Positions 5,003-36,782 of a DNA stretch of 64,000 nucleotides are shown here, piece by piece. Below the pieces are notes generated by a model that had not been told where the DNA came from, made no database searches, and saw only the letters and a list, made by a program, of their open reading frames with translations. Location of the stretch: the NCBI GenBank assembly GCA_001817065.1, contig MHHQ01000025.1, forward strand, positions 55,528 through 119,527, given 5' to 3'. Both the position numbers and the translations under genes were made by a program. Position 1 is the first letter of the stretch, and each line of letters starts with the position of its first letter. The stretch is from Candidatus Andersenbacteria bacterium RIFCSPHIGHO2_02_FULL_46_16 (GTDB taxonomy: Bacteria > Patescibacteriota > Andersenbacteria > UBA10190).

Positions 5003-5764
5003 ATGACCATCCCATCCCCTGCCCCGGATCCTATTGCACACAAAAATCGCCCGTTTGATGCTGGTTCGGTTTGGGTGGTTATTCCCACTTACAATGAAAA
5101 ACTAAATATTGTTCGTCTGATTGCCGAAATATTCTCGCTTCCTTTGCCTCATCTAAGTCTATTAGTCGTCGATGATAACTCACCAGACGGCACTGGTGCC
5201 TTAGTAACCCAACTCCAAAGCCAATACCCTAAACTTTTTCTTCTGTCGCGCCCCAAAAAAAATGGTTTAGGACGGGCTTATGTTGATGGATTTGATTATG
5301 CCATTAAACAGGGCGCGAATACTATCGTACAAATGGACGCTGATTTCTCACATAATCCAGCTGACATTCCGCGTCTTCTTCAGGCACTAACTGATCAAGA
5401 CGTCGTTATCGGTTCACGATATGCGCACGGCATTAGCGTTATTAACTGGCCGCTGCATCGTTTACTGCTTAGTACTAGTGCCAATATCTATGCTGGTTTT
5501 GTCACCGGCATGCCATTCAAAGACTGTACCGGTGGTTTTCGTGCTTGGCGTGCATCTACTTTAACCGCAATCAATTTTTCCGATATCCAAGTTGACGGTT
5601 ATGGTTTTCAGATAATTATGCTCTACCGCACTTGGCGACAGCCCAGTCGCATTATTGAGGTACCTATCATCTTCACTGAACGTCGTGAAGGTCAATCCAA
5701 AATGACCAATAGTATAATTGCTGAGGCAATGATCTTGGTCTGGAAACTGCGCTTATTTGGCTAA
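5003..5764 (+). CDS. GT2 polyprenyl-phosphate glycosyltransferase (dolichol-phosphate mannosyltransferase DPM1/GtrB-like)
   Basis: VWVVIPTYNEKLNI...LLVVDDNSPDGTGALV...KNGLGRAYVDGFDYA...IVQMDADFSHNP is the canonical DPM1-type GT-A block order, with DxD = DAD. Confidence 0.8.
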   Translation: MTIPSPAPDPIAHKNRPFDAGSVWVVIPTYNEKLNIVRLIAEIFSLPLPHLSLLVVDDNSPDGTGALVTQLQSQYPKLFLLSRPKKNGLGRAYVDGFDYAIKQGANTIVQMDADFSHNPADIPRLLQALTDQDVVIGSRYAHGISVINWPLHRLLLSTSANIYAGFVTGMPFKDCTGGFRAWRASTLTAINFSDIQVDGYGFQIIMLYRTWRQPSRIIEVPIIFTERREGQSKMTNSIIAEAMILVWKLRLFG

Positions 5765-5785
5765 CTCCATAGCCGCTCCTGCTTC

Positions 5786-8020
5786 GTGAAGTCTTTTCTC
5801 GTCAAATTAGCCGCCGCTTATTATCCGCTGCTGTTTGTATTACTTGTTATCTCCGCCTCCTTTTATCCTCTGCTAATTGGCCGCTTTTTTGCTATCGGTG
5901 ATATCCGTGATGTCTATATTCCGATTGAGCAATTCTTTCATACGCAGGTTGTGCAAGGCCATCTGCCGGCGTGGCTGGCTGATGCGGCCTGGGGATTCCC
6001 GGTTATCGCGTCAGCCCAAATCGGCTTTTTTTATCCGCCCTTGCTGGCACTACGGCAACTGCCCCTGTCTGTCTATTTGCCTATTTTGCTGTTGGCTCAT
6101 TTTCTGTGGCTAGGACTAGGAACTTTTTTGTTTTACCGGCGTTTTTGCGCACCCTCATCCGCCGCTGTTGGTGCACTCTCGTTTTCCTTAGGGGGTTATA
6201 TTGTCTTACACCTTACTCACCTCAATATCATATTTTCTCTAGCCTGGTTACCTTGGCAATTCTTATTAATTTACCGCCTCGCCTCGCGTCCCCTAGCACA
6301 TCGTACGATCCTTTATCTGGGGCTATTACTAGCCATCCCCTTTCTGGTGGGACAAATACAAATACCCCTCCTTATGTTCATCATTTCTTCTGTCTGGTTC
6401 TTATACCTTCGCCATCACTTTGCTTTTTCCTGGACTTGCTCTTTTGTTGTCTTAGTCGTAGTGGCTGCTTTGGTCGTATTGATGAGTTCTGTACAGCTGC
6501 TGCCCACCTATGAACTAATGACACAGTCTACTCGCGATATTTCTTCTGCTTCCTTTGATATCATGCGTGCCAACCAGCACAGTTTCCCTGTCTATCATTT
6601 GCCCACTCTCCTTTTCCCCCGTTTCTTTGCCAACGATGACATGTATTGGGGGCGTCGTCTGCAAATCGAGTATGGCGTTTATATAGGCACATTTCCTCTC
6701 ATCGCTGCCTTACTTTTTCTCTTTCGTCCTCGCTCTAAAGACCAGCCATCATTGCCAACTAATTTATATGATGTCACGCCTTTCTTTCTTATCTTGTTGA
6801 TCACCTCATTTTTGTTGGCCCTGGGTTCCCTCTCACCATTTCGCCTGCTTAAAATTGAACCGTCGCTATGGGTTTTTTCCGCTCCGGCACGCTGGCTGCT
6901 TTTTACTAGTTTTTCTTTTTCTTTTTTTGCCGCTACGGGAGCTGATCGCTATTTTAAGCAGCCAGCCTCTTACCGACAATTATTTCGTAGATTATTCCTT
7001 ATCCTTCTGCCCTTTTTGATCGTTTGCCAATTGATCTTATGGTTTCTCGTCAACTATTCATCAGTCTGGCTCTACCCTTATTTGTCATCAGCCCATCAAC
7101 AGAAAATATCATCACTAATCTCCAGTGCCAGTCAGTCCAGCGTAAGTTTAGCATCGCTCTACACGTGGCTGCCTCTCCTGATTATTTTTGTCATCTCTTG
7201 TCGCTTTGTTTTACGCCACCCCGTACGCTGGGTATTGTCATTAACCGCGCTGGAATTGTCTCTGCTCTTTATTACCACCACGCCGACTTTGCCTTGGGCA
7301 GACATTATTTCCCCTCCCGCTACTCTATCTAGCTTGCCTTTATCCGTGCGGAGCGGACAAGCCCGGCTATATTCGATCCGGGAAGGTGGCGACACTGGTG
7401 CTTACTTTACTAACCCAAACTCGCGGGCCAATGCCACATTACGTCAGCAGCAGCGCCAACTATTTGTTCCCCTTATCCACACACAGTTTAACTTACCGGG
7501 TATTGAATGGCCTGCCTCCCTTGATCTAGGTGCCCACTCCGCTATTTTCTCTAAGCTTCGTACTGATGATAGCTACGAGCTGACGAATACCTCTCTCGCC
7601 AAACAATTAAATATCGGCGCTGTCCTCAAATCATCCGACCAATCCATCTCAGTTAGCACTACCGATTATGCACCGCGTTTAGAACTTATCTCGTCCAATA
7701 GTATCAGCACGCCTCTGGCTTATCCCAAAAGTACCAACGGATCATTTTCGATTGACTTGGATGTACCGCAGCTGTCCACTTTAGTGGTGCGTGACTCATA
7801 TTATCCAGGCTGGCGTGCTACAATTGATGCCAGACCAACGACTATTTCAGTCTATCAAGACATCTTCCGCCAAATCTCAGTTCCGGCCGGTCGCCACCAA
7901 GTAACTTTTTCTTATTATCCCGCTTACCTATATGTTGGTCTCATCATTACTTCCCTAACTCTTAGCCTTATCATCATTTGGTTATTTTTCACCCTCTTTT
8001 ATCATCGTTTTTACCAGTAA
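5786..8020 (+). CDS. YfhO-family large polytopic membrane glycosyltransferase-like protein
   Basis: 744 aa with more than 12 TM helices, then an extracytoplasmic C-terminal domain and a final TM. The C-terminus DSYYPGWRATIDARPTTISVYQDIFRQISVPAGRHQVTFSYYPAYLYVGLIITSL matches the conserved YfhO terminal motif (YsPGWkaxVdGkxvxi..adgaFraVxvpaGkHtVef.YrP). It lies directly after a DPM1-like GT2, like the CsbB/YfhO pairing. Confidence 0.6.
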   Translation: MKSFLVKLAAAYYPLLFVLLVISASFYPLLIGRFFAIGDIRDVYIPIEQFFHTQVVQGHLPAWLADAAWGFPVIASAQIGFFYPPLLALRQLPLSVYLPILLLAHFLWLGLGTFLFYRRFCAPSSAAVGALSFSLGGYIVLHLTHLNIIFSLAWLPWQFLLIYRLASRPLAHRTILYLGLLLAIPFLVGQIQIPLLMFIISSVWFLYLRHHFAFSWTCSFVVLVVVAALVVLMSSVQLLPTYELMTQSTRDISSASFDIMRANQHSFPVYHLPTLLFPRFFANDDMYWGRRLQIEYGVYIGTFPLIAALLFLFRPRSKDQPSLPTNLYDVTPFFLILLITSFLLALGSLSPFRLLKIEPSLWVFSAPARWLLFTSFSFSFFAATGADRYFKQPASYRQLFRRLFLILLPFLIVCQLILWFLVNYSSVWLYPYLSSAHQQKISSLISSASQSSVSLASLYTWLPLLIIFVISCRFVLRHPVRWVLSLTALELSLLFITTTPTLPWADIISPPATLSSLPLSVRSGQARLYSIREGGDTGAYFTNPNSRANATLRQQQRQLFVPLIHTQFNLPGIEWPASLDLGAHSAIFSKLRTDDSYELTNTSLAKQLNIGAVLKSSDQSISVSTTDYAPRLELISSNSISTPLAYPKSTNGSFSIDLDVPQLSTLVVRDSYYPGWRATIDARPTTISVYQDIFRQISVPAGRHQVTFSYYPAYLYVGLIITSLTLSLIIIWLFFTLFYHRFYQ

Positions 8021-8029
8021 CTATTATTT

Positions 8030-9241
8030 ATGAAAATCAGCATCTCTGTTCCCAGCGGCTATCATGCCCGAGAAATCCTCTTTCCGCTGCAGTCTTTGTT
8101 AACCGACGACCCGTCCATCTCATCAGTCTTTGTGATAACTCCAGCGGCCGAGTGGCACCAACAATTATTCCCTGATTTTGCCTCTAAGTTTTCCTTCCAC
8201 CCAAATGCCTTCACCCCTGAGGGTCATGAGCATTTGCTCTCTGACCTTAAGCCCGACTTGGTCTTAACTCCTACCATGGGCCTTGATCTCAAAGACACCC
8301 CTCTCATTCTTGCTGCCCGTCGGCTGAATATCCCCACCTTAACTTTTGTTTCCAGCTGGGACAATGTATTCAAGATAGCCCGCCTCATCCGTCATGGCCA
8401 CGCCAAACATATCTCTAATGTCAGTGTTGCTTATGCATTACCTGATTATTTTGCCGTTTGGAACCAATATAATTCCGATCATCTTTTTCGCCTTCTTCCT
8501 CAACTCAAACCTGCTCAAGTCGTTATTACTGGGCCACCCCGTTTCGATTATTTTACTCACACCGATCGAATACCATCCAAGGCTGATGTATATCGTTACC
8601 TCAACATTAAATCAGACCCGGCAGTAACCAGCCTAGTCCATTGTGCCACCACTGAGCTTTATCCGTTTAATTATATTATTAAACAGATCCATAGCGCGGT
8701 CGTCTCTCGCCGCTTGACCACCCCTATCGAACTATATGCTTCCGTCCATCCTGGTGGAAATATGTCCAAACACCAAGGTTATGCCAAGTATGGTGTGACT
8801 ACCCGTTATTCATTTGGTCGTCGGGACTCCGCTCCTCATCCAGATTTTCTCTTTTTGCCTACAACCACAGAAATGTATTATCTCGTCGCTTTGTTTCAGC
8901 ACTCTTCATTATTAGTTAATCAATCATCAACCGTCGCCATTGAATCAATGCGCGCAAACGTACCGGTCATTAATGTTATGTATGGCCGGTCTTTAGACTG
9001 GTGGCGCTGGCGCCACTCCATGGTTTATCGCGACTTTAATCAACATTATCGATATATCACCGACAACAAAGGCACTTCTTTAGTTAAACACCGCCGCTCA
9101 CTATTACCCGCCATTAATGTCTGCCTTAACAACCCGGCGTATAAAAGCTTTGAGCGTGCGTACACCGTACAAGAAATTATCACTAATTCCGACGGCCGCT
9201 GCGGCCGTCGCTTGATTGATTTGGCAAAAAGTCTGGTTTGA
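8030..9241 (+). CDS. Hypothetical GT-B-fold protein (MurG/LpxB/TagF-like architecture), function unknown
   Basis: 403-aa soluble ORF. The N-terminus MKISISVPSGYHAREILFPL and the C-terminal SSLLVNQSSTVAIESMRANVPVINVMYG resemble the two Rossmann halves of UDP-sugar GT-B enzymes. No family-specific motif was identified. Confidence 0.35.
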   Translation: MKISISVPSGYHAREILFPLQSLLTDDPSISSVFVITPAAEWHQQLFPDFASKFSFHPNAFTPEGHEHLLSDLKPDLVLTPTMGLDLKDTPLILAARRLNIPTLTFVSSWDNVFKIARLIRHGHAKHISNVSVAYALPDYFAVWNQYNSDHLFRLLPQLKPAQVVITGPPRFDYFTHTDRIPSKADVYRYLNIKSDPAVTSLVHCATTELYPFNYIIKQIHSAVVSRRLTTPIELYASVHPGGNMSKHQGYAKYGVTTRYSFGRRDSAPHPDFLFLPTTTEMYYLVALFQHSSLLVNQSSTVAIESMRANVPVINVMYGRSLDWWRWRHSMVYRDFNQHYRYITDNKGTSLVKHRRSLLPAINVCLNNPAYKSFERAYTVQEIITNSDGRCGRRLIDLAKSLV

Positions 9242-9264
9242 CAAATTAACAGAGTATCCCTTTA

Positions 9265-10152
9265 ATGACTGTTCACTATTCATCTGCTATGAAATTTCAT
9301 TATATCTCTCACCCCCGGCGTAATCCTGCTATTACTGCCTCTTTGCAGAAAGCTTGTTTAAGCCGCAGCATCGAGTTTATCCAGGTGAATCCATTTCACT
9401 TTGATTTTACGGATTTTTCGCAAATACCGGCCCCTGGTGATGCTATTTATCGCTCACTAGCTACTACTGCTCACAATGGCTTATCTCGTACTGTAGAAAG
9501 ATGGTTGATCCATCGGCAGGTCGCTACGCTTTACTCCTCCTATGAACGCGCTCTCAGCCAATGGCCACAATCCTATGTCATTCATGCCAAACATAGTTTG
9601 CCCCAACCGATCACCATTTGGAACGTACCGCGCGATCGCCAGTTGATTGATCGTTATGTGGAGTTTGTCCACGGATATCCGGTGATAATCAAGGTTACTG
9701 GCGGAAGCCATGGCGTTGGTGTTATAAAAGTTGACTCCCCCGCTTCCCTTTATTCATTAATAGATTATCTGCATGGCACCTGTACCCAGACTATTATGCG
9801 GCAATTTATAACGGCTCGGCACTCAGCGCGCTTAATTGTTTTAGCCGACCAAGTAATTGCCGCCATCGAATATAGTACCCCTGCCCACGATTTCCGCACC
9901 AACATTGGCCACAATCCTATCGTCAAGGCCAAGCAATTCTCGGCTGACATTAATAAATTAGCTGTGCAAGCCGTTGCCACCATGGGAAATTTATTTGGTG
10001 GTGTCGATATCTTAATTGACGCTAAAGGTCAGCCTTACATTACGGAAATGAATTTCCCCTGCAATTTTGCCCGTGCCGCTGCCGCCACCAACATAGATAT
10101 AGCCAGCCTGCTAGTCAACTTTCTGCAGGACGAAGCGAAAACCCATGTTTAA
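9265..10152 (+). CDS. ATP-grasp ligase, RimK/LysX-like (amino-acid ligase)
   Basis: GYPVIIKVTGGSHGVGVIKV is the ATP-grasp phosphate-binding loop. HDFRTNIGHNP matches the RimK-family DFRSNlhrGG motif. The C-terminal ITEMNFPCNF fits the EMN/ExN metal site. Confidence 0.7.
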   Translation: MTVHYSSAMKFHYISHPRRNPAITASLQKACLSRSIEFIQVNPFHFDFTDFSQIPAPGDAIYRSLATTAHNGLSRTVERWLIHRQVATLYSSYERALSQWPQSYVIHAKHSLPQPITIWNVPRDRQLIDRYVEFVHGYPVIIKVTGGSHGVGVIKVDSPASLYSLIDYLHGTCTQTIMRQFITARHSARLIVLADQVIAAIEYSTPAHDFRTNIGHNPIVKAKQFSADINKLAVQAVATMGNLFGGVDILIDAKGQPYITEMNFPCNFARAAAATNIDIASLLVNFLQDEAKTHV

Positions 10153-10807
10153 ACGCGGATATATTTCCATTGTTTTTGATGACGGATATGAGGCGGTCTA
10201 TCGCAATGCCATTCCTATTTTGCGCCGTCACCATCTACCGGCAGTAATTGCTTTGCCGCTTAATGGAGATAAACTAGCCAAGACAGAAAAGCGTGCTGTC
10301 CGGCCATGGTCCGAGTGGCTCTCCTTAGTGCCGGAGGGTTTTGAAATTGCCTCTCATTCCGTTAATCACCACAATCTGACTAAGCTTTCCCTGCCGGATC
10401 TTAACTTTGAATTGACTGAATCTGCCAAAAAACTGAATGCTGTAACGCTAGTCTATCCAGGTGGTGCCATTAATGACACTGTGATAAGTTTAGCTTCGCA
10501 AACTTATCAAGCTGGCCGCACTATCCACTATGGTTTCGAAACCGTACCTCCGCGCGAGCCAATGCGCCTTCGTTCCTACAATTTTTCTCGCCGCAACTTT
10601 TCTGTTATCAAAGCCAACCTGTTAGCCCTTTGGGTTTGGCTTACCAACTCTTGGCTGATTGAAACCTATCATCTTATTGACGAGCATGACCAAACCACCA
10701 TGCACAATGTAAAAACTAGCGACTTCAATCGGCACATGTCTTTCCTGGCTCGCTTGCCCGTTCAAGTTAAAACCATCAAAGACATTATCAATTTATCCAA
10801 AGCTTAG
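10145..10807 (+). CDS. Polysaccharide deacetylase (NodB-homology, CE4)
   Basis: ISIVFDDGYEAVYRNAIPILRRHHLPAVIAL gives the TFDDG-type motif 1 and ASHSVNHHNL gives the HSxxH motif 2. The start overlaps the upstream gene. Confidence 0.7.
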   Translation: MFKRGYISIVFDDGYEAVYRNAIPILRRHHLPAVIALPLNGDKLAKTEKRAVRPWSEWLSLVPEGFEIASHSVNHHNLTKLSLPDLNFELTESAKKLNAVTLVYPGGAINDTVISLASQTYQAGRTIHYGFETVPPREPMRLRSYNFSRRNFSVIKANLLALWVWLTNSWLIETYHLIDEHDQTTMHNVKTSDFNRHMSFLARLPVQVKTIKDIINLSKA

Positions 10808-10817
10808 ATTACGACTT

Positions 10818-11651
10818 ATGCTGTCTGCTATTATTATCACCCGCAACGAAGCATCCTCGATTGAGGGCTGTATTGCTAGCCTGTCCTTTGCCGATGAAGT
10901 AATTGTCATTGATTCCGGCAGTACTGATCAGACCATGTTATTAGCCAAGCGTTGCGGCGCAAAGGTTTTTACCCATGCCTGGGCAGGTTATGGTGAGCAA
11001 AAAAACTTTGGAGCAGCGAAGGCTATGGGGCAGTGGCTGCTTTTTATTGATGCTGACGAAAAGGTTTCTCCCGCATTAGATGACACTATTACTAGTTTAA
11101 TCAATACCCCCGCAGCTAACACCTACGATTATTATTGGCTGCGTATTATTACGATTTTTTTGCATCGTCCGCTCACTCATCTTTACGGTAATAATCTCCG
11201 CTTATTCAAAAAATCGGCCGGCCATTGGAACGACGCACCAGTCCATGAACAAGTCGTTGCCGGAAACAACCAAACCATCAAGCTAGGTGATCCGCTATCC
11301 GGCCGTCTCTTCCCTCCTCTTTTCCATTATTCCCATCACACCAGCAGTTCTTACCTTAAAAAAATGCACCATTACACCACCCTTGATGCTAACCAGATGT
11401 ATACGACTGGCCAGCATCGCTCTGGTCGCTCATATCAGCCATCCATCCTGTTGCCTTATCGTCTTTTTTTACGGCAGCTGGTTAAGTTGCTGTTCTATCG
11501 CCGTGGTTTTCTCGATGGTCTAGCCGGTTACGTTTGGTGTGTTTTATCTGCTTATTACGAATATGACATGAGCAAGAAATACGTTCGTCTTAGTCGTATA
11601 GAGCCACAAATCCCCTTTAATCCATCCTCACCAGATAAACCATTAAGTTAA
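10818..11651 (+). CDS. GT2 family glycosyltransferase (WaaE/KdtX-like, soluble GT-A)
   Basis: LSAIIITRNEASSIEGCI...VIVIDSGSTDQT...WLLFIDADEKV is a GT-A fold with DxD = DAD. No TM segments. Confidence 0.75.
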   Translation: MLSAIIITRNEASSIEGCIASLSFADEVIVIDSGSTDQTMLLAKRCGAKVFTHAWAGYGEQKNFGAAKAMGQWLLFIDADEKVSPALDDTITSLINTPAANTYDYYWLRIITIFLHRPLTHLYGNNLRLFKKSAGHWNDAPVHEQVVAGNNQTIKLGDPLSGRLFPPLFHYSHHTSSSYLKKMHHYTTLDANQMYTTGQHRSGRSYQPSILLPYRLFLRQLVKLLFYRRGFLDGLAGYVWCVLSAYYEYDMSKKYVRLSRIEPQIPFNPSSPDKPLS

Positions 11652-11668
11652 ATCAACCTCTTCTGCTT

Positions 11669-12826
11669 ATGCGCATCGTTCATACCTGCTTACGTTACCC
11701 TCCAGCTACCGGTGGAGTAGAAACCTATGTGCGTGAATTAGTTAAAAGAACCCGCAGTATTGCTCAAAATATTGATGTCCGCGTCTTAACCAGTAAAATG
11801 CGCACGCACGGCCCGATTACCGAGCTTAGTCCCGATCGCTTGCTTTATGATCCTCCATATGTGCAAAGATTGCATCACCTGGCCACTCCCCTTGTCTCTT
11901 ACCCTCGTCTGCAGGCTCTTAACTATTATCTAGGCCATCACCAACCAGATTTGGTTCATGCTTACAGCTTCTGGTATCAACCAGCCGATACGACCGCTCG
12001 CTGGTGTGCCAAACATCACCGGCCTTTCATTTTCCATCCGATGTATTACGAATCAGCTAACCGCCGCAAGCTATCTTGGCAAATCTATAAAAAAACTATT
12101 GGCTATCGCACTTTCGCTGCCGCCGACGCTGTTGTGGTAATCTCTCCTTTTGAACAATCACTGATTACCCGAGCCGGTTTCCCGGTTAAACGTTTTCATC
12201 TGATTCCGCCAGGTGTAGATCTGTCCGAATTTCAATCTGCTGCCCCAAATCCTTTCCAGTCTTCCCCCCCAGGCACCCCCACCCTTCTTTGTGTGTCCCG
12301 CCTGTCTGCCGACAAAAGCCTACAGGATATTATATCTGTTCTTCCGGACATTCTTCACGCCGCTCCCACCGCTCGTTTATTTATTGTCGGTGAGGATTTT
12401 GGCTATGTATCTGAACTATCCGCCCAGGTTGAAAGGTTGGGTTTAGCAGCCCATGTCCGATTACTAGGACATCTCAGCCGTCGCGAGCTAATCGGTGCCT
12501 ATCAACATGCTGATCTCTTTATCCACCCGTCTAAATACGAAGCCTTCGGTATCGTCATTGCCGAAGCTGTTGCAGCCCACCTACCAGTCATCGCGCGGGA
12601 TGCTGCCGCCATCCCCTATGTTGCTCCGCATAACCACTCCGCTCTTCTTTTCCATAATAACCATGAACTTACCCAGCACATTTTATCCTTGATAAAGCAT
12701 AACGAATTAGCACGCGAGCTGGCTGATAGGGCTTATGAACGGCTGATTACAAACTTCACATGGGATATTGCCCAAAAAAAAGTGATCGATCTTTATACAG
12801 AGTTTTCTGCAAAGATTAATCACTGA
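11669..12826 (+). CDS. GT4 family glycosyltransferase (GT-B)
   Basis: N-terminus MRIVHTCLRYPPATGGVETYVREL. C-terminal EAFGIVIAEAVAAHLPVIARDAAAIPYV matches the E-x7-E GT4 motif. Confidence 0.8.
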   Translation: MRIVHTCLRYPPATGGVETYVRELVKRTRSIAQNIDVRVLTSKMRTHGPITELSPDRLLYDPPYVQRLHHLATPLVSYPRLQALNYYLGHHQPDLVHAYSFWYQPADTTARWCAKHHRPFIFHPMYYESANRRKLSWQIYKKTIGYRTFAAADAVVVISPFEQSLITRAGFPVKRFHLIPPGVDLSEFQSAAPNPFQSSPPGTPTLLCVSRLSADKSLQDIISVLPDILHAAPTARLFIVGEDFGYVSELSAQVERLGLAAHVRLLGHLSRRELIGAYQHADLFIHPSKYEAFGIVIAEAVAAHLPVIARDAAAIPYVAPHNHSALLFHNNHELTQHILSLIKHNELARELADRAYERLITNFTWDIAQKKVIDLYTEFSAKINH

Positions 12827-13253
12827 CATCTAATGCATCAATCCGTCTGGCTGCTTGAATTTCTTGTGCTAGGACCAAAAGATTCTGCGATTCCCGATGC
12901 ACGATTTGACGTCGATGATATTTCGGACGTTCAAATAGGTTATCAAGATGATGGTCAGAATCACTGATTAAAATAATCAGAAAAGGTCCTTGTTCCCCAT
13001 GTCTTAACGCATCCTCTGCATCGCTCATCTCCTCTTTAAATGCCCGACCATCTCTATTAACTTCATCTAACGCGACTGCATGAGCTCCAAAATATTCCTT
13101 ATAACCTTCTGTCCAATTCGTGAAAGATCTAATCAAAACATCATCAAAACCGGCCATTTTTAGATATTTCACTATTCCATCTGGTCGGTCAGAAACAACA
13201 AACACATCTTTTCCGCTCATTGTCCTGCCCTTTTTGAGTTGGTGAGAGAACAA
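12816..13253 (-). CDS. Hypothetical charged soluble protein (145 aa), minus-strand orphan inside a plus-strand operon
   Basis: This ORF exactly fills the 476-bp gap between two plus-strand glycosyltransferase genes. It is Asp/Glu/Arg-rich, unlike its neighbours. A likely alternative start is MSGKDVFVV at about 13220. No recognisable family. Confidence 0.4.
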   Translation of the reverse strand: MFSHQLKKGRTMSGKDVFVVSDRPDGIVKYLKMAGFDDVLIRSFTNWTEGYKEYFGAHAVALDEVNRDGRAFKEEMSDAEDALRHGEQGPFLIILISDSDHHLDNLFERPKYHRRQIVHRESQNLLVLAQEIQAARRIDALDVSD

Positions 13254-13302
13254 AAAAACTTTATAATATACCTTATATTAACTATCAAACTAATATACAT
13301 TC

Positions 13303-14382: not shown

Positions 14383-14456
14383 TTGCCAAACCTTAACTAG
14401 CTTCTCCCATCAGCTAGCCGGCCTTATCATCTGTCCTTTACCCCCACACCCAGAAA

Positions 14457-14479
14457 GCGCCGGCCTTTAAGGCCGGTGA
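14457..14479. terminator. GC hairpin (CGCCGGCC-TTTAA-GGCCGGTG), part of a bidirectional terminator between convergent genes
   Basis: Seen in sequence between the 13303..14382(+) stop and the 14541..15506(-) stop. On the minus strand the hairpin is followed by CTTTCT; on the plus strand a T5 run lies 8 nt downstream. Confidence 0.45.
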
Positions 14480-14510
14480 TGAATGGTTTTTATATTAGCT
14501 CCGCTGAAAA

Positions 14511-14532
14511 GCCCTGGCTTTTAGGCCAGGGT
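14511..14532. terminator. GC hairpin (GCCCTGGC-TTTTAG-GCCAGGGT), part of a bidirectional terminator
   Basis: Perfect 7-8 bp stem immediately 3' of the minus-strand gene stop at 14541. On the minus strand it is followed by CTTTTC. Confidence 0.5.
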
Positions 14533-14540
14533 GTGAGGGT

Positions 14541-15506: not shown

Positions 15507-15526
15507 GCTCTGGAAACGCTGGCGTA

Positions 15527-16438: not shown

Positions 16439-17684
16439 AAGTTGTTATTACTTCTTTATAGAAATCTTCGTACAAAGAAGCAATGTTATTTTTATTTAAA
16501 TTAATTTTCGTCCACTCGCAGCCTAATTTACCCATTTTCTGCCGTTCCAGATCATTCATTTGCAGCGCTCTCATTAGCACGTGACTCAAAGCCTTTGCTG
16601 ATCTACGTTCAAACAACAAGCCTGTTTCTCCTGGTCTTATCATCTCGCTTGGTCCGCCTACATTAGCTGCTACCACCACTTTGCCCCGCGCCATACCTTC
16701 CGCTACTGTTCGCCCGAACGGCTCGTACCAAAGATGCGGAGCGACGACAATCCGTGCCTGATCGTATTCCCTAATTATCTGGTCCCACGCAATTTTACCC
16801 ACAATTTGTACGGAATATTGCATGCCTGCTCGCCCTACTACTGTTTCGTATTCCTGTCTATTTGTGCCTTCCCCGACAATTTTTAATGTCGCTTGCGGTG
16901 CCATCTTGGCTACCTGCCTCCAGCTCTCTAATAATAACCCGACCCCTTTATAGTTTTCCACTGTTCCCACATATAAAACCTTGCCTGTATAACCGTCGCT
17001 AATATTGTTGCTTAAAAAGTTATCCGCAATCGGATTATAAATAACTTTCCTCGGTACATGGCTTTCCTCTCTTTGCTGACTAATTATTTCCATTTGTTGG
17101 CGGGAAATGTAGACTTCTCCATCCAGTTCAGAAAATTTACTTTTACGGTAATTAATGTTCATTCTGTACTGCCATAATCTGGCCCATCGTCTCGGCCCAT
17201 TTACCTCTGCTATCCGATGAGACAAATAAGCGTCTTGAATACTATCGGCCGGTAAGTCACCGCTAGCGGTGATAAAATTCGTTGATCCGCTGCACACAGC
17301 ATAGTCTCTGATAGTTGCTATAATTGGCGCGCCACTGCCCTGAAACATTCGTCGCCATTCCATTAATCCCAGCACTGACCGAAAATCATTAGCGTGGACT
17401 ATATCAGCCGCTTCTAATAAATCTTTTTGGCTATTTAACGCCCTAGCTATCGCTCGACTTTTTCTCTTTTCATCCAAGGGTTTGTCGCGTAGACCCGCCG
17501 CTACTTTATAAACTTTTAAACCATCAAATTCTTCAGTACCTACTTGACCCTCCGTAATTACACTCACTTCATTTCCTTTCTCATGCAAACCCCTAGCCAG
17601 CAAATAAGTCGATATCTCTGCTCCCCCCTTTGTCTCCGGCGGGAAATAAGCAGTCACTAATACAACCTTTAATCCTTTGCCCAT
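16416..17684 (-). CDS. GT4 family glycosyltransferase
   Basis: VVLVTAYFPPETKGGAEISTYLLARGL and EPFGRTVAEGMARGKVVVAANVGGPSEMI (E-x7-E). Confidence 0.8.
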   Translation of the reverse strand: MGKGLKVVLVTAYFPPETKGGAEISTYLLARGLHEKGNEVSVITEGQVGTEEFDGLKVYKVAAGLRDKPLDEKRKSRAIARALNSQKDLLEAADIVHANDFRSVLGLMEWRRMFQGSGAPIIATIRDYAVCSGSTNFITASGDLPADSIQDAYLSHRIAEVNGPRRWARLWQYRMNINYRKSKFSELDGEVYISRQQMEIISQQREESHVPRKVIYNPIADNFLSNNISDGYTGKVLYVGTVENYKGVGLLLESWRQVAKMAPQATLKIVGEGTNRQEYETVVGRAGMQYSVQIVGKIAWDQIIREYDQARIVVAPHLWYEPFGRTVAEGMARGKVVVAANVGGPSEMIRPGETGLLFERRSAKALSHVLMRALQMNDLERQKMGKLGCEWTKINLNKNNIASLYEDFYKEVITTYANKGKN

Positions 17685-18826
17685 AGTACTTTTTTATATA
17701 CGTCGATTACCTGCCGCGCCGACTTTTCCCAGCTGAAATGCTCTACTTGCTTTTTCCCTAGCGCCTTTAGTTGATCCCGTAATCTTTCGTTTACCAGCAC
17801 GTCCCGCACTCCTTGAACCATCGCTTTTTCATCGCCTGCCTGGCACATTATGCTAGCGTTGCCCACTACTTCCGGTATAGCAGTGGCTTTAACCGTTACA
17901 ATCGGCAATTGCGTAGCCATAGCCTGTACCAGCGGCAAGCCAAACCCCTCATTGGTTGATGGAAACAACAGCATATCACACATATTGTATAGCTCGTTTA
18001 ATTCTTCATTACTGACATCACCAATAAATTTTACCCGAGACCGTAAACCTGCCTGGTCAATCTTAGCCAGTAACTTTTCTCTTTCCGCTAAAATGCCGGC
18101 CGCGCCTGCCTTGAGTAACATGACATTTTGCCCTTGCTTGATTAATTCGCCCAGCACATGAATAGCCGCGCCCGCGTTCTTTCTCGGGTGATCAGATCCG
18201 ACAAATAATATTATTTTAGTGTCATTTCCAATGCCCCACTTTTTTTTCGCGGCTTGATAACCAATCGTATCCCGATAATGTTCGATGTGCTGCCACTCAT
18301 TTCCAACACCATTATAAATAACCGTGATCTTATCACCTGATATTCCATAATACTTCTTAACTTCACCCGCCGTGTATTTTGACACAGCAATTATTTGCGT
18401 GGCATCTTTAATGCCGCTTAATAAATACCGATTCACATATTTCGATAATTTATGCTGCGGATCCGTTAATTCAATTAAGTCATGTACAGTCACCACTGTC
18501 GGCTGCACGGCGCTTCTGGTCAGCCAGCTTAAAGACTGATTAGTGATATGCCATAAGTCGTACTGTCGCTTGTCCCGCTGCCTAATGTATTTTTTCCACC
18601 TATTTCCTAATCTAATCCAATTAATTGATTTGTTCTTAAAGCCAAATTTAGTGCTAACCCAATCAGCCGGTCGCCCTTCCTTGCTCAACAAACCTCGCCC
18701 GCCATCCAGATGGAAGTCACATATCGTTACGCCTTCTTTGCCCGCTCTAATATGTTTCTTTATCTCGAGAGCTCTATATCCGACACCCGATCGATCTGAG
18801 CTATTTGTTAAATAAGCAATGCGCAT
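17669..18826 (-). CDS. GT4 family glycosyltransferase
   Basis: EGFGLPLVQAMATQLPIVTVKATAIPEVVGNA matches the GT4 motif. 385 aa, GT-B layout. Confidence 0.8.
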   Translation of the reverse strand: MRIAYLTNSSDRSGVGYRALEIKKHIRAGKEGVTICDFHLDGGRGLLSKEGRPADWVSTKFGFKNKSINWIRLGNRWKKYIRQRDKRQYDLWHITNQSLSWLTRSAVQPTVVTVHDLIELTDPQHKLSKYVNRYLLSGIKDATQIIAVSKYTAGEVKKYYGISGDKITVIYNGVGNEWQHIEHYRDTIGYQAAKKKWGIGNDTKIILFVGSDHPRKNAGAAIHVLGELIKQGQNVMLLKAGAAGILAEREKLLAKIDQAGLRSRVKFIGDVSNEELNELYNMCDMLLFPSTNEGFGLPLVQAMATQLPIVTVKATAIPEVVGNASIMCQAGDEKAMVQGVRDVLVNERLRDQLKALGKKQVEHFSWEKSARQVIDVYKKVLWAKD

Positions 18827-18830
18827 ATCT

Positions 18831-19937
18831 TTATCCCGCTACCTTTTTATAAACGTCAATGGTTTTATCCACTACCTCATCCCAACTATTTATCATGGCT
18901 CTCTTTTTCCCCTTTTCCGCCATCGCCGCGAGTCTGTTTTCATCTTGCAATACGGACAACATACGACTACTCAAATCATCAATAAACGACTCATCTAGCA
19001 GCCGATCACTCAATCGGTCTTTATAAAAATTAACTATCTCGCCGCTATCTCCTACTACTTCCGGTAAAGCACCGCCGTTGCTCACTATAACCGGTACTCC
19101 ATATGCCATCGCTTCCTGCGGTGGGAATCCCCACCCCTCGTAGACGGATGGCCAAACAAATAAATCAGCCTGACTATATAATCCACGCAGTTCCTTCTCA
19201 AATACAAACCCTCGCCAGCTGACCCTATCTTCTATTTTTAGTTTGCGCGCTAATGTCAGCCATACGGCTGACCCTTTATAGGCCTTTCCGGCAATTATTA
19301 AACGATGAGGTATCTGTTGATGTATCCGTGCAAAGGCTTTTAGCAGTGCACCGATATTCTTCCGCGGTTCAAGAGTACCAACAAATAATATATTAGCCTC
19401 CCCAGTCGACTTTTCAGGCAAATCCCTAAACCTATCATCAACACAGAGCGTTGTGACACTGATTTTGTCAGGCTCCACCCGTAATCTCTCGCAAATATCC
19501 CGCTTGCTTGCTTCTGAAATTGTTAAGATATGGTCGCTTTTATCCGCCGCTCTTTGCAACGCTTGTGGCCAATACCATCGTCGCGATAATTTTTGGCTGC
19601 TCGGCATTAGTAGCGGAATTACATCATAAATCGTCACCACCGTCGGCCGCACTTTATGACTTGGTACATCTGCTTTGGTGTAGTGAACAACGTCCGGATG
19701 AATTTCTTGCAATTTCTTCTCTACCTGTCGGTTTAACCAATAATTTAGCCCGATTGCTCCATATCTTTTCACTACTACAGCTTTGTGTATATCCGTCTCG
19801 ATTGGTACCGGGAAATCAACTATCGGATAACAACTTAGATCGCTCTTTTGCATCAACTTCCTTAACAGGTTCTTGACGTAACGATTCACTCCACCCCCCT
19901 GATTTGCTAAAGCTCTGGCTTCAATCGCTACTTTCAT
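18831..19937 (-). CDS. GT4 family glycosyltransferase
   Basis: [33 protein letters not shown]. Confidence 0.8.
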
Positions 19938-21136
19938 ATGGTTTCACCTACTGTTGACGCCCTGTGTTCCTGCAAGCAACTTTGCAATACTTCCTCATAT
20001 CTTTTGCCTACCCTAGACCAGTAAAAACCTTGTACCTCCTGCCTATTAATTTCTCCCATTTTCTGCCCTAACTTATGGTCACCCATCAATCTGTTCATCC
20101 CCTCAGCCATTACCTGTGCGTTTTTGGGTGGTACTAACAACGCGTTCCTCTCATGCACGAGGAAATCTGTCTGTCCCCCTTCCCACGTACCAATTATCGG
20201 CAGTCCTGACTCCATTGCTTCCAAAAATACAATACCAAACCCTTCGTGCTCGCTAGCGGAAATAAACCCATCTGCGACATCCAAAATATTTATTTTGTCT
20301 TCTTCACTCACGTATCCCAGCCAATGCATTCGCTCGCTCACTCCTAAGTCATAGGCTTTCTTTTTTAGATTATCTAATAACGGACCATCCCCCATGATTG
20401 CCAGATGTGCCTTCGTCGTCTTAGCCAAAGCCTCCAGCAGGCAGCCGTATCCTTTTCGGGGGATTAACCTGCCCAGAGATACAAACAGGGGTACTCCTTC
20501 CGGTAATCCCAATTCTCGGCGCGTCTTCTGGCCCGTGTGCGCCTTGGCGACTATCCCTAAGTTAATGACGACAATTTCCTTGGTTACCTTATGAATATCA
20601 ACTGCCCGTCTCTTCGTATCATGCGAAATAGCCGTGCATACCGTAGCCTGGTTAGATATCACTTTTACAATTTTCCGTAATAACCAATGTCGGTGAGGAG
20701 ACACTCCCTTTGTCGGATCAAATAAATCTCCGCCAATAAAACTAAGTACCATTGGTATATTAAAGCGACTAGCGATCCAGACCGCTGGCACACCAGACGG
20801 AATCACAAACTGTGCATTTACTACATCAAAATGATATTGTTTCACCAATTTTCTCGCCTTCCACCAAGCACTTGGTACAAATGTTATCATTGACATCAAC
20901 GACGCCACCGCCAAACTAGTTCTTCCCCATACAGCCACCCGATGGATATGTACCCTATTAACAACTGGCGCCGTGCTTTCCCCTCTATCATTCCAATCTT
21001 TGAACTTTCTGCTTGGCCGGCTAGTAATCACATGCACTTCATGGTTTGGTGCTAATTCTTCCGCAATGTATTTGGTAGCAATGCCTCCGCCGCCCCCTAG
21101 TGGCGGATACTCAAAATTGAAAATTAATATTTTCAT
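19934..21136 (-). CDS. GT4 family glycosyltransferase
   Basis: MKILIFNFEYPPLGGGGGIATKYIAEEL and EGFGIVFLEAMESGLPIIGTWEGGQTDFL. Confidence 0.8.
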   Translation of the reverse strand: MKILIFNFEYPPLGGGGGIATKYIAEELAPNHEVHVITSRPSRKFKDWNDRGESTAPVVNRVHIHRVAVWGRTSLAVASLMSMITFVPSAWWKARKLVKQYHFDVVNAQFVIPSGVPAVWIASRFNIPMVLSFIGGDLFDPTKGVSPHRHWLLRKIVKVISNQATVCTAISHDTKRRAVDIHKVTKEIVVINLGIVAKAHTGQKTRRELGLPEGVPLFVSLGRLIPRKGYGCLLEALAKTTKAHLAIMGDGPLLDNLKKKAYDLGVSERMHWLGYVSEEDKINILDVADGFISASEHEGFGIVFLEAMESGLPIIGTWEGGQTDFLVHERNALLVPPKNAQVMAEGMNRLMGDHKLGQKMGEINRQEVQGFYWSRVGKRYEEVLQSCLQEHRASTVGETI

Positions 21137-23280
21137 AAACCTTTTAGTACCTGCATAACCGGCTCCCTGATAATGACTGCTTGTGAGCGGCTATTTCTAA
21201 ATAATATTTTATTCTGTCCCGGTAAAGCGACTATGTCTAATGTCTGCCCGCCAATTTTTTCATTCCAATTTACTGCCATATTAACCTGACCCTCTATTTG
21301 CAGTAGGTCTGCTTCTGTCTGCCCCATTTTCCAGCCTAATTGAACATGCGCTGGTCCCTCGTTAATATTGTAGATCATTAAAGTAGCTACATCCTTAATG
21401 CCGGCTACCACCTCGTTGCTGTTTGGCTCTCTTCCAACTTCCCCCCAACCATTATCGCGGGCGACAAACACGCCATCGCCTGCCGGCAATTGACTAATAT
21501 CATACAGCCACACATCATCGACTACTTCCCGTTTTAGGCCGCTAGTCCTCTCTAAAAAATTAATTACAGCTTCTTTTTGCAGGTCGGATAATGAATCTGG
21601 ATGCACTAATATCTGACGGACGTCTAACCATCTGGCTACGTCCGCCAAAGTCTCCGTCATGTCCTGTTCCATAAATTCATCTCGCCCGTCCAATAAATGT
21701 CCTGTCCTTAAGTACAATAACTGCCGCAAAGCCGGCATCGACCTGACTTCATCATAGGCCTGCGCTCCTTCCGCCCTCTCGAGAGCGATATTGTTTAATA
21801 CCTTTTTACCATGTGTCAAACTACCAAACAGTGCTCTCGATGCTACTGTATAGTTCGTTGCTGTGGGAATCTCAATAATAGCCACGCCTGGCCGATCTTT
21901 AATCACACTATAGACTCTTGGTATATACGCAGACATCATTGGCATTGGAATAAATACAAACTCCAGGATAATAAACAGTGCTATTATGCTGGCAATGCCA
22001 ATTCTCTTCACTTGCGTCGCCAGTACCCAGCCAAATAAGACCATCCAGGCCAGGTTTACCATCACACCTGCTCTAGCCACCGTACGCACAGCGTTCATCA
22101 CCGGCCACTGATTAACTAATTCCCATGGCAATGGTATACCAGTTATGTATCCCAACAAATGCAATTTCGGACCGAGGCTAATTACTCCAAACAAACCGGC
22201 TGTGATTAACCAAAACTTTAGCTGCTTACTTGGTACTCTTTGCCAAAAGAAGCCAACCATTAATATGGGCAATAAACCGACAAACAAAGTTGCTTCCTCC
22301 ACATTACCCGTAAAATAATTTCCCCATACCTTGCTCGCCGCTGTTCCCCAAAGCGAATGGAACGACGCCGGCACTACATATGCAAACGGATCAGCGGAAT
22401 ACCTGATTATTTGTTCTTGTCCCAGATACAATTGGCTATTTTCTTGTCCGGCTAATTTGATCGTTGGCCCCAAAGACAGCCCCACGGTTATTGTCACTCC
22501 AATCACCAGCAGCCATAAATACCAACGGCCCATCTCATCTCGGCTAAATTCTCTCACTTCTGCTCTAAAATAAACGACATACCATATACCAAAGACTATT
22601 AGCCACAATAAATAATGGTGTTCCGTCCAAGCCTGCAAGGTGACCAAGCTGATCAATATTAATGTCTTGACTAAGCTTGGCTTTCTGACTAACGCCCAGC
22701 CTGTCAATATAATTAACGGCAGCCACTGAATTTGCATCGCACCAAAATGTCCTCTGGCATGCGCCACGTGATAAGGCAACAGCATATAAGCCAATCCTGC
22801 TAAGAAACCTGGCGCTTCTTCCACTAATTTATTCCAACTGCTTTTTGTCTCACTGACGGAATCTACTCTGACGCTGCCATATGTCTTAATCAGCCAGCTG
22901 ACTAACAAGTACATTCCATATCCGGCTAAAACGAAACTGCAGAGCCAAATAATATTGTAACCGACCACTACTCCAAATAAGCCTACTATTGGTAGCCACG
23001 GCCAAACCGATAAATTTACCAGCCTGGCTTCACCTTGCCCCAGGAACTCCCGTTTGATTATGTCTATCGTGTGACCTTCTTCCCAAGACTGGCTCAACAT
23101 CTCTACTTTCTCCTCCATCCGCCACATGGTCTGCCATGGATCTCCACCCGATCCAGCTATATGCGTTCCCACATTAACTGCGACCGGCCAGGTTAAGATA
23201 ATGACCAACCCCGTATAGATGACCACCACACCGATATGTTTTACAATCTGATTTTTCATTCTCTTTAGTAACGGTAGCAT
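21133..23280 (-). CDS. Large polytopic membrane protein, putative GT-C-type (GtrC/YfhO-like) glycosyltransferase
   Basis: 715 aa with about 13 TM helices and a C-terminal soluble domain. It is divergently transcribed from a GtrB-like GT2 plus a small membrane protein. No definitive family motif was recognised. Confidence 0.45.
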   Translation of the reverse strand: MLPLLKRMKNQIVKHIGVVVIYTGLVIILTWPVAVNVGTHIAGSGGDPWQTMWRMEEKVEMLSQSWEEGHTIDIIKREFLGQGEARLVNLSVWPWLPIVGLFGVVVGYNIIWLCSFVLAGYGMYLLVSWLIKTYGSVRVDSVSETKSSWNKLVEEAPGFLAGLAYMLLPYHVAHARGHFGAMQIQWLPLIILTGWALVRKPSLVKTLILISLVTLQAWTEHHYLLWLIVFGIWYVVYFRAEVREFSRDEMGRWYLWLLVIGVTITVGLSLGPTIKLAGQENSQLYLGQEQIIRYSADPFAYVVPASFHSLWGTAASKVWGNYFTGNVEEATLFVGLLPILMVGFFWQRVPSKQLKFWLITAGLFGVISLGPKLHLLGYITGIPLPWELVNQWPVMNAVRTVARAGVMVNLAWMVLFGWVLATQVKRIGIASIIALFIILEFVFIPMPMMSAYIPRVYSVIKDRPGVAIIEIPTATNYTVASRALFGSLTHGKKVLNNIALERAEGAQAYDEVRSMPALRQLLYLRTGHLLDGRDEFMEQDMTETLADVARWLDVRQILVHPDSLSDLQKEAVINFLERTSGLKREVVDDVWLYDISQLPAGDGVFVARDNGWGEVGREPNSNEVVAGIKDVATLMIYNINEGPAHVQLGWKMGQTEADLLQIEGQVNMAVNWNEKIGGQTLDIVALPGQNKILFRNSRSQAVIIREPVMQVLKGL

Positions 23281-23378
23281 ATTGAATCAATAATCAGCCC
23301 TCTCGTCAAACTAAATTATCTCGCAATATCCACACCCGTGGCAATTGCTCGTCTCCTTGTCTAATGTAGTCTAAATAG

Positions 23379-24080
23379 ATGGAAACACTAAACGGACAAA
23401 ACGCTAATGTTGTTATTGTAATTCCAGCCTATAATGAAGCCTCTGTCATCAGTTCTGTTATTGAGTCGACAATAAATCATGGTTATTCATCGATCATTGT
23501 CGTCGATGATGGCTCCACCGACCAGACTTCTCAGATGGCCGTACAGTCTGGCGCTATAGTTGTTACCCACCGCATCAACCGGGGCAAAGGTGCAGCAACT
23601 AAGACTGGGCTAGAAGCCGCTCGGCTCTTATCCTCTGCGATTGTTGTCACTATGGATGCTGACGGGCAGCATCATCCTCAGGATATAGACGCTCTCATCG
23701 CCCCTCTTAAACTCAATCTTTGTGATGTCACGCTTGGCACTCGACCAAAAAATACAGCCGCCATGCCGGTGACACGTATCCTCTCTAACCACATCGCTAA
23801 TTTTGTAACATGGACTTTCTTTGGACTCTACGTGCAAGATAGTCAGTCTGGTTTTCGTGCCTATACTAATAAAGCCTTACGCCTAATCTCCACTTCAGCT
23901 GACGCCTATGACTATGAAAGCGAAGTTATCCGAGAGATCCGTCGCCATCGACTAATTTACAAGGAAGTGCCAATTGGCGTACATTACACAGACTATTCTA
24001 TGTCCAAACCAACTCGCCAGGACTTTTCGAATGGTCTCAAGACTCTTTATAAAATTATCTGGAAAGTAATATCATTCTAA
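23379..24080 (+). CDS. GT2 polyprenyl-phosphate glycosyltransferase (GtrB/DPM1-like)
   Basis: VVIVIPAYNEASVISSVI...IIVVDDGSTDQTSQMA...GKGAATKTGLEAA...VVTMDADGQHHP. Confidence 0.8.
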   Translation: METLNGQNANVVIVIPAYNEASVISSVIESTINHGYSSIIVVDDGSTDQTSQMAVQSGAIVVTHRINRGKGAATKTGLEAARLLSSAIVVTMDADGQHHPQDIDALIAPLKLNLCDVTLGTRPKNTAAMPVTRILSNHIANFVTWTFFGLYVQDSQSGFRAYTNKALRLISTSADAYDYESEVIREIRRHRLIYKEVPIGVHYTDYSMSKPTRQDFSNGLKTLYKIIWKVISF

Positions 24081-24083
24081 CTA

Positions 24084-24437
24084 ATGCGTATTGGAGACCT
24101 TCAATTTTATCAGATTGCCGTCCTGCTCATTTCACTGGTCATGATTTATTTTGGCTTGGAGAAATACTTTCAGCGTCAAGCCACCCAAACTTTTTTTAAG
24201 CTTCTAGTCCGCATTGTTGTCTGGGGTGGTATGTCCTTAGTCGCTCTTTTCCCTCGCTTGACCGATCAAATTGCCTCCTTCATTGGCATTGCAGAAAACG
24301 TCAACGCCGTCATTATGCTTGGTTTTTTGCTGGTATTCTTGCTGATCTTCAAAATTTTATCTGTCGTCGAACGCTTAGAGCAGCAAATATCCACCCTTAT
24401 TCGTCAGGACGCTCTCGATAACTTTAAAAAAAAATGA
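24084..24437 (+). CDS. Small 3-4 TM membrane protein (GtrA-like or DUF2304-like) partnered with the GT2
   Basis: 117 aa with three or four hydrophobic helices (IAVLLISLVMIYFGL, VVWGGMSLVALF, VIMLGFLLVFLLIFKIL). Its stop overlaps the next gene. The position and size match small flippase-like partners of GtrB-type enzymes. Confidence 0.45.
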   Translation: MRIGDLQFYQIAVLLISLVMIYFGLEKYFQRQATQTFFKLLVRIVVWGGMSLVALFPRLTDQIASFIGIAENVNAVIMLGFLLVFLLIFKILSVVERLEQQISTLIRQDALDNFKKK

Positions 24438-36722: not shown

Positions 36723-36782
36723 TTTGATTGCCGGACATCTTCTGCGCTTGCGCCCCTTCAAGCCCTGTCGCATTATTTTTAT

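Follow-up and report, generated by a model that had tools for sequence, protein, structure and literature searches.

We analyzed a stretch of 64,000 nucleotides from Candidatus Andersenbacteria bacterium RIFCSPHIGHO2_02_FULL_46_16 (the window), in particular its positions 5003 to 24437 and the lipid-carrier glycosylation genes in and around them. We consider it probable (about 0.7) that in Candidatus Andersenbacteria (candidate phyla radiation (CPR)/Patescibacteria) a large locus for the assembly of a cell-envelope glycan has its center in this region, and that in this locus a conserved core is combined with accessory decoration modules. Homology showed three short family 2 glycosyltransferases (GT2s) without transmembrane (TM) helices to be of the type expected to make polyprenyl-phosphate-sugars, and five polytopic proteins of the GT-C glycosyltransferase fold form four families, namely YfhO, PMT_2, a new family of 715 amino acids (aa) and a new STT3/PglB-like family with two paralogs. 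Glycan synthesis occupies nearly all of the 55–60 genes in the window, and glycosyltransferases make up about half of the genes (about 25–30 in 64 kb). Because more than 60 kb is given over to glycan assembly, with five GT-C enzymes within 30 kb and a conserved core, a surface glycan is probably central to Andersenbacteria biology.

The cluster did not arise by chance, as its gene order is kept in 36 species genomes. For this comparison, 36 loci from 36 species genomes were collected with the profile of the 715-aa family and three contigs were added by exact look-up, and the related loci were annotated by BLASTP with the window proteins. An operon of YfhO, 403-aa protein, deacetylase, GT2, family 4 glycosyltransferase (GT4) and GT9 genes recurs in related genomes, convergent to a second operon that starts with the 715-aa GT-C (GTC715) and continues with GT4 genes; this core is conserved across Andersenbacteria and recognizable in more distant Parcubacteria. 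In the window, four GT4 genes are translationally coupled behind GTC715, and in all the loci with downstream DNA (38/38) the GTC715 homolog is followed by the same GT4 orthologs, co-directional and in the same order, even in Parcubacteria loci at 25–27% identity.

Relatives differ in what lies upstream of the 715-aa gene. Of the 32 species for which the upstream DNA reached 5 kb or more, 11 had a gene for a small membrane protein of the DUF2304 family, each beside a PpgS-like GT2, and such a GT2 adjoined DUF2304 in every related locus that carried it upstream of a GTC715 homolog. A member of the 643/747-aa family (the STT3/PglB-like one) was found within 1.3 kb on the same strand in 10 of the 11 DUF2304 species, all ten with an ortholog of the GT4 gene GT4_417, while a 643-family gene occurred in one of the 21 species lacking DUF2304 (Fisher p = 1.8e-6). 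The GT4_417 ortholog adjoined in 12/12 loci with the module. We concluded that GT2_PpgS, DUF2304, GT4_417 and the 643/747-family GT-C are one accessory module beside the conserved core, and that GTC715 of the core is tied to the GT4 operon and not to the divergent GT2. In other genomes the variable zone held PMT/PMT_2 genes, or a DPM-like GT2 beside other large polytopic proteins, and a large polytopic open reading frame (ORF) lay within 2.6 kb of 29 of the 35 DPM/PpgS-like GT2 genes of the related genomes. At one locus (L022, 7277–8980, minus strand), the slot of the 643-family between DUF2304 and GT4 was filled by a 567-aa protein with about 10 TM segments, which had no Pfam match and no similarity to the 643-aa family and may be another unannotated GT-C.

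The Pyrococcus furiosus dolichyl-phosphate-mannose (Dol-P-Man) synthase (PfDPMS; structure 5mlz) was the best solved-structure match of all three GT2s, with E values of 8e-33 for GT2_DPM_A (aa 14–249), 8.5e-22 for GT2_DPM_B (aa 13–231) and 2e-8 for the third; GT2_DPM_A and PfDPMS shared 36.7% identity over 226 aligned residues. ArnC came after 5mlz in the PDB matches, and GtrB (sll0501) matched one GT2 only. The best NCBIfam matches of the three were PpgS, AglJ, ArnC and the haloarchaeal Dol-P-hexose transferase, and GT2_PpgS scored best with PpgS (142 bits, cut-off 370) and AglJ (123 bits). Hydropathy gave no TM helix in any of them, so by sequence they are of the TM-less kind like DPM1, PpgS and GacI, which would depend on amphipathic helices or a membrane partner.

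The functional residues of PfDPMS, which are D89/D91, R117, R131 and S135 (the last three being ligands of the Dol-P phosphate) and R202/K208 of the A-loop (Gandini et al., PMC5526996), were transferred through a HMMER alignment and an alignment of the three GT2 proteins. The DAD motif was invariant in all three (D112-A113-D114 in GT2_DPM_A). GT2_DPM_A kept R139, R153, S157, R227 and K233 as the equivalents of R117, R131, S135, R202 and K208, and GT2_DPM_B kept DAD, both arginines, the serine and the A-loop arginine, but GT2_PpgS kept only DAD and both arginines, with the serine off by one position and the A-loop arginine absent, and these differences fit its closer similarity to PpgS/AglJ. 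An earlier sequence-only reading had given all three enzymes the full DPM1 motif set, which was right for GT2_DPM_A, nearly so for GT2_DPM_B and not for GT2_PpgS. The lipid-phosphate site is kept, so a DPM1-type acceptor region is present.

The same reading had proposed that the five large polytopic proteins are of GT-C or YfhO type, and all five indeed had the GT-C fold: the closest structural neighbors of their multi-TM core were GT-C enzymes, not transporters or Wzy-like proteins. Three of the five (GTC715 and the tandem pair OSTl643 and OSTl747) had no match in Pfam or NCBIfam, and they form two GT-C families recognized here for the first time, for which there is neither a Pfam model nor a public annotation. 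In both families an invariant aspartate (D47 in the GGDPWQ motif of the 715-aa family, D161 in the LPxxDxY motif of the 643-aa family) stands right behind a TM helix, where a short helix begins, and on the predicted topology this would be the position expected for a GT-C catalytic acid. Profile–profile comparison gave no relation between the two families (probability 6.5%).

GTC715 homologs come overwhelmingly from Andersenbacteria metagenome-assembled genomes (MAGs), and the family is marked by the motifs GGDPWQ, GHFGA and EHHY. The C-terminal half is extracytoplasmic and includes a beta-sandwich, and the C-terminal domain resembles carbohydrate-binding modules, which suggests a glycan acceptor. 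Compared with AftD, AftA, ArnT and PMT, GTC715 has a motif set of its own; mycobacterial AftD is twice the size of GTC715, shares only about 10% identity with it and is tied to the decaprenyl-P-arabinose pathway, whereas GTC715 is always coupled to four GT4 genes instead. Some GTC715 homologs carry precomputed DUF6311 (PF19830) tags, which were not reproduced at E ≤ 0.1 and were not used.

The 643/747-aa family is much larger than a quick search suggested. A shared-word search for OSTl643 returned only 16 clusters, and its repeat with a profile added 2 sequences, but an exhaustive HMMER profile search brought up 463 representatives, of which 360 had E values below 1e-30; the small gain of the repeat is due to its shared-word candidate list, and it took the exhaustive search to show how large the family is. 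Orthologs of both paralogs were present at two related loci (L003 and L030). The family combines the multi-TM GT-C core, preceded by four extra N-terminal TM helices, with a C-terminal domain of mixed alpha/beta structure resembling the central-core unit of oligosaccharyltransferases (OSTs). With STT3/PglB/AglB it shares this core and the central-core-like domain, and its invariant acid lies in the predicted first external loop. It differs in having no Pfam STT3 match, no PDB sequence match and no WWDYG, the defining motif of STT3/AglB/PglB, as well as in its genetic coupling to a polyprenyl-monophosphate GT2 and DUF2304. Neither W[WYF][DE]xG nor WWD was found in any of 53 diverse members (53/53), and the same 53 against Pfam gave 2 weak PMT_2, 1 TMEM260 and 6 DUF6798 matches and no STT3. 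By pattern comparison, the equivalent of WWDYG may be the segment S(Q/S)(G/S)(N/S)K. As to acidic residues, D161 is invariant and E447 nearly invariant, and there is no conserved DXD.

Table 1 Positions of the window features discussed in the text and the matches on which they were named
Feature	Coordinates	Strand	Match or other evidence
GT2_DPM_A, 253 aa, Dol-P-Man synthase (DPM1/Ppm1) type	5003-5764	+	PF00535, E 1.6e-28
GT2_PpgS, 233 aa, PpgS/AglJ/GacI-like polyprenyl-phosphate glycosyltransferase	23379-24080	+	PF00535, E 1.6e-24
GT2_DPM_B, 268 aa, DPMS-type	40815-41621	-	PF00535, E 8e-20
YfhO-family GT-C, 744 aa	5786-8020	+	Pfam YfhO (PF09586), 53.6 bits (cut-off 28.5)
GTC715, 715-aa GT-C-fold enzyme, unannotated family centered on Andersenbacteria	21133-23280	-	No Pfam/NCBIfam match
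OSTl643, 643-aa GT-C, closest fold STT3/PglB/AglB	25668-27599	+	No Pfam or NCBIfam match
OSTl747, tandem paralog of OSTl643, insertion in C-terminal domain	27609-29852	+	31% identity, E 7e-75
PMT_2 (ArnT/PMT-like) GT-C, 466 aa	33805-35205	+	PF13231, 36.7 bits (cut-off 26.1)
DUF2304 small membrane protein, 117 aa, ~3 TM, GacJ/Rv3632 family	24084-24437	+	PF10066, E 1.9e-17
GT4_417, accompanies GT2/DUF2304/643-family module	24434-25687	+	Pfam
Four consecutive GT4 genes (19934-21136, 18831-19937, 17669-18826, 16416-17684)	16416-21136	-	Pfam Glycos_transf_1/Glyco_transf_4
MurJ-family flippase, candidate exporter of lipid-linked intermediates	1092-2702	+	PF03023, E 2.8e-59
Wzx-like (Polysacc_synt) membrane protein, second candidate flippase	43947-45209	+	Weak PF01943, E 7.5e-4, under cut-off; ~9 TM
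Remainder of conserved core operon: unknown 403-aa protein, RimK-like ATP-grasp, polysaccharide deacetylase, non-DPM GT2, GT4, GT9	8030-14382	+	Pfam
GT4-like protein (311 aa), GT2-GT4 fusion (649 aa), GT4 (366 aa)	29849-33808	+	Pfam

The YfhO-family gene starts 22 bp downstream of GT2_DPM_A, and this adjacent pair fits the suggested analogy to CsbB/YfhO. The Pfam match covers only C-terminal residues 637–722 (model positions 749–835), while residues 34–387 align (E 1e-25) with a 968-aa Andersenbacteria protein at locus L026, the N-terminal half of which matches YfhO model positions 5–435; since the C-terminus matches Pfam and the N-terminus is linked through this homolog, both halves are YfhO-like. 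Hydropathy placed a 240-aa extracytoplasmic region before a C-terminal TM anchor, and there were weak NCBIfam matches to PgfM1/PgfM2. In the PMT_2 protein, residues 93–250 match model positions 4–160 of 160. Profile–profile comparison (hhalign) related the PMT_2 protein to the 643-aa family with a probability of 78% over the TM core, and the YfhO-like protein to the 715-aa family with 50%, both of which are weak support. Searching the PDB by sequence, with the PMT_2 and YfhO-like proteins and with profiles of the 715-aa and 643-aa families, gave nothing meaningful, whereas comparison of folds was informative; a scan of genome contigs with the single YfhO-like protein found no relative.

The small protein encoded 4 bp past the stop of GT2_PpgS has three TM segments by hydropathy, and its DUF2304 match is nearly complete (63.9 bits against 25.5; aa 9–113 on model positions 2–104 of 106). 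In Streptococcus pyogenes, the DUF2304 protein GacJ and the GT2 GacI make up a complex that withstands detergent, and GacJ lowers the Km of GacI for undecaprenyl phosphate from 18.7 to 1.1 uM (Rush et al., bioRxiv 10.1101/180810). According to the same work, the M. tuberculosis homolog Rv3632 stimulates PpgS, DUF2304 genes adjoin or are fused to genes of GacI/PpgS-type GT2s, and the GacI product is used by the GT-C GacL, with flipping ascribed to the Wzx-type GacK (bioRxiv 10.1101/180810). By analogy, the 117-aa protein is read as a GT2 activator and not as a flippase.

In the mechanism we propose for the locus, the GT2 enzymes would charge the lipid carrier at the cytoplasmic face, with DUF2304 binding and activating the PpgS-like GT2 as GacJ does for GacI. 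From nucleotide sugars, GT4, GT2 and GT9 enzymes would assemble glycans on the lipid, proteins of the MurJ or Wzx type would flip the intermediates, and the GT-C enzymes would hand sugars to an extracytoplasmic acceptor, perhaps a surface protein, a lipoglycan or a polymer of the wall. Synteny suggests three enzyme pairings that can be tested, namely the DPMS-like GT2_DPM_A with YfhO, like CsbB/YfhO; GT2_PpgS, DUF2304 and GT4_417 with the OST-like 643/747-aa GT-Cs; and GTC715 with the four GT4s behind it. It had been argued that much of the decoration happens outside the cytoplasm from polyprenyl-P-monosaccharide donors. The three GT2s, the five GT-Cs and the MurJ and Wzx-like candidate flippases bear out the general idea, but donors that are all monosaccharides are not supported as stated, given the OST-like fold and the GT4 that is always in the 643/747 module.

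These last two features also leave room for another reading of the 643/747-aa paralogs, which we hold only tentatively: they could be en-bloc oligosaccharyltransferases, for which the DUF2304-aided GT2 would prime the polyprenyl monophosphate and GT4_417, together with the GT4/GT2 enzymes encoded after it, would lengthen the glycan on the lipid before its transfer to an acceptor that is not a sequon. In the haloarchaeal (Haloferax) pathway, AglJ primes and AglB transfers a monophosphate-linked glycan en bloc. The OST-like fold, the obligatory GT4 and the possibility that a DPM/AglJ-type GT2 primes the lipid monophosphate together lead to this reading, yet WWDYG is absent from all 53 members and no sequence-level link joins the family to STT3. 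The stronger form, that the family is a CPR branch of the STT3/PglB/AglB fold which has lost the WWDYG sequon pocket and performs archaeal-style monophosphate-linked en-bloc transfer, is rather unlikely; if true, it would mean archaeal-style en-bloc glycan transfer in bacteria to a non-sequon acceptor, e.g., a wall polymer or an O-linked protein site.

The divergent trio at 21133–24437 had been seen as a mirror of the GtrC/GtrB/GtrA module. The arrangement itself is real, with a large membrane protein, a GT2 and a 117-aa three-TM protein, and it could in principle be a self-contained GtrC/GtrB/GtrA- or YfhO/CsbB/GtcA-type module in which a polyprenyl-P-monosaccharide from the GT2 is flipped by the small protein and GTC715 transfers the sugar. 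The genes are neighbors, separated by about 100 bp over a divergent promoter region, the arrangement recurs at nine loci (L003, L006, L010, L012, L014, L021, L028, L030 and L038), and the 715-aa protein is a GT-C. But the small protein is DUF2304 and not GtrA, and the published role of DUF2304 is activation of the GT2, with a separate Wzx-type flippase (bioRxiv 10.1101/180810). GTC715 keeps its GT4 operon but has no nearby GT2/DUF2304 in 21 of the 32 species, and GT2/DUF2304 are co-directional and co-inherited with the 643/747-aa family; comparison across relatives thus gives no link of GT2/DUF2304 to GTC715, and the module reading is improbable. The GtrA family (PF04138; about 120 aa, 4 TM) matched none of the window proteins scanned, including the 117-aa protein, and in the gap at 12826–13303, checked for a hidden GtrA-like gene, the sole ORF encodes a soluble 145-aa minus-strand protein. 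That the large membrane proteins are instead Wzy-type polymerases, O-antigen ligases or transporters and the GT2s ordinary cytoplasmic repeat-unit transferases is very improbable, for although three of the five have no Pfam match and the locus is rich in cytoplasmic GT4 enzymes, the fold searches contradict it.

Several points weigh against the envelope-glycan locus as we describe it. All three GT2s score far under the NCBIfam equivalog cut-offs (the best being the 142 bits of GT2_PpgS), so sugar specificity and specific orthology are not assignable. The adjacency of GT2_DPM_A and YfhO was seen in close relatives only (two from the metagenome scan), and the species in the co-occurrence table are kin, so the Fisher p overstates their independence. 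Topology and TM counts come from simple hydropathy and AF2 secondary structure, and we infer the functional steps (donor, acceptor and product) from homology and gene order. Among the window proteins scanned (64 kb) there was no priming phosphoglycosyl transferase of WecA/MraY or WbaP type; either the primer is encoded elsewhere, or a DPM/AglJ-type GT2 primes the lipid monophosphate.

With the small protein identified as DUF2304, the closest precedents are GacI/GacJ/GacL, which serve the group A carbohydrate of S. pyogenes (GlcNAc side chain), and M. tuberculosis PpgS/Rv3632/Rv3779, not GtrB/GtrA/GtrC. A short GT2 of the polyprenyl-P-sugar type, DUF2304 immediately downstream, a GT-C for use of the product outside the membrane and a separate flippase are common to these systems and the present one. 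In contrast to both, the partner GT-C here is an unannotated STT3/PglB-like family with two paralogs, and a GT4 is always in the module; in contrast to PpgS, the GT2 stays at 142 bits against a 370-bit cut-off. The teichoic-acid system CsbB/YfhO (with GtcA), with its csbB-yfhO operon arrangement, and the protein O-glycosylation system PgfS/PgfM1/PgfM2 of Firmicutes have, like positions 5003–8020, a GT2 gene beside a YfhO-family GT-C, and there are weak NCBIfam matches here to PgfS as well as to PgfM1 and PgfM2. The difference from these systems is that the GT2 here has no C-terminal TM helices and is closest to DPMS/DPM1, and that no GtrA/GtcA-family protein was found in the window. With phage-type O-antigen glucosylation by GtrA/GtrB/GtrC the locus shares the three-step logic of lipid-P-sugar synthase, export and membrane transferase, but it has DUF2304 in place of GtrA, its GT2s lack the two TM helices of GtrB, and its module, which is kept throughout a lineage of phylum rank, lies on the chromosome and is not carried by a phage.

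Machinery of this kind is well known, and what is new is its density in a CPR lineage, the two GT-C families without models and the module of GT2, DUF2304, GT4 and OST-like GT-C. The genomes of CPR/Patescibacteria are very small, the organisms are believed to live attached to other cells, and hardly any work has addressed their surface chemistry; a recent paper on the Saccharibacteria pilus calls the glycosylation processes of that group “unexplored.” The key proteins carry only the names hypothetical or “putative membrane-spanning protein” in GenBank, and the analysis assigns a class of function to proteins that are “hypothetical” throughout the public records. OSTl643 has the same sequence (100% identity) as a hypothetical protein of [quoted passage not shown] and the GenBank entries that match the other key proteins come from this MAG and from “Parcubacteria group bacterium GW2011_GWA2_45_14.” Each ORF listed in the sequence-only reading was present with exact boundaries. 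An Rfam scan of the window found no RNA family.

The genes around these enzymes gave some further observations. The soluble 403-aa protein (8030–9241, plus strand), which lies directly after the YfhO gene and has no assigned function, bears a faint resemblance to GT-B folds of the UDP-GlcNAc 2-epimerase type and nothing more; its ortholog (42–60% identity) holds the same operon position in many related genomes and directly follows a YfhO homolog wherever the fetched locus extends that far (L009, L024, L040 and L041). Directly upstream of the MurJ gene and overlapping it, a 356-aa protein with about 9 TM segments is encoded (25–1095, plus strand), which matched no family and did not resemble the GT-C families of the window; its C-terminal 101 residues are 93% identical to a cut ORF at the start of locus L040. 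The three genes at 29849–33808 overlap head to tail with the genes that flank them. After the PMT_2 gene, the glycan operon contains an M14 zinc-carboxypeptidase-like protein (35076–36485, plus strand), and this protein and the RimK-like ATP-grasp (9265–10152) are a hint that the polymer may undergo peptide chemistry. The M14 ORF, which as listed overlaps the PMT_2 gene by 130 bp, seems to start too early, as does the RmlD-like ORF (36585–37685, plus strand), where a 66-aa Pro/Gly-rich leader precedes MKVLITGGTG.

Other genes concern the sugars themselves. GT2_DPM_B lies immediately downstream of an NAD-dependent sugar epimerase/reductase gene (41748–42704; Pfam Epimerase and GDP_Man_Dehyd), which we read as GDP-fucose-synthase-like and which hints at a possible GDP-sugar donor for this GT2. 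An internally deleted remnant of this kind of gene was found at 57054–57398 (plus strand): 34 aa at its start (56% identity) and 76 aa at its end (51%) align with the two ends of the intact 318-aa gene, from which it differs by the loss of about 190 residues in the middle. A gene set for nonulosonic (sialic-like) acid at 48880–52998 (minus strand) comprises a NeuB-family synthase with SAF domain, a UDP-GlcNAc 2-epimerase, a CMP-type cytidylyltransferase and a 2-hydroxyacid dehydrogenase, and a sialic-acid-like sugar may thus be part of the glycan. The protein encoded at 47438–48613 (minus strand) has a match (E 9e-9) to PF03214, the “reversibly glycosylated polypeptide” family, which is known mainly from plants and is unusual for bacteria.

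The strand asymmetry of the window was extreme and independent of gene orientation, with a GC skew of about −0.22 across positions 1–64000 and a third-codon-position GC skew, in the sense direction, of −0.31 for plus-strand and +0.32 for minus-strand genes. The C-rich strand holds two thirds of the coding sequence, and its proteins have less Glu (2.4 vs 5.8%), Lys (3.5 vs 7.0%) and Gly and more Ser, Pro, Leu and Phe, a bias that probably weakens the profile matches of plus-strand genes.

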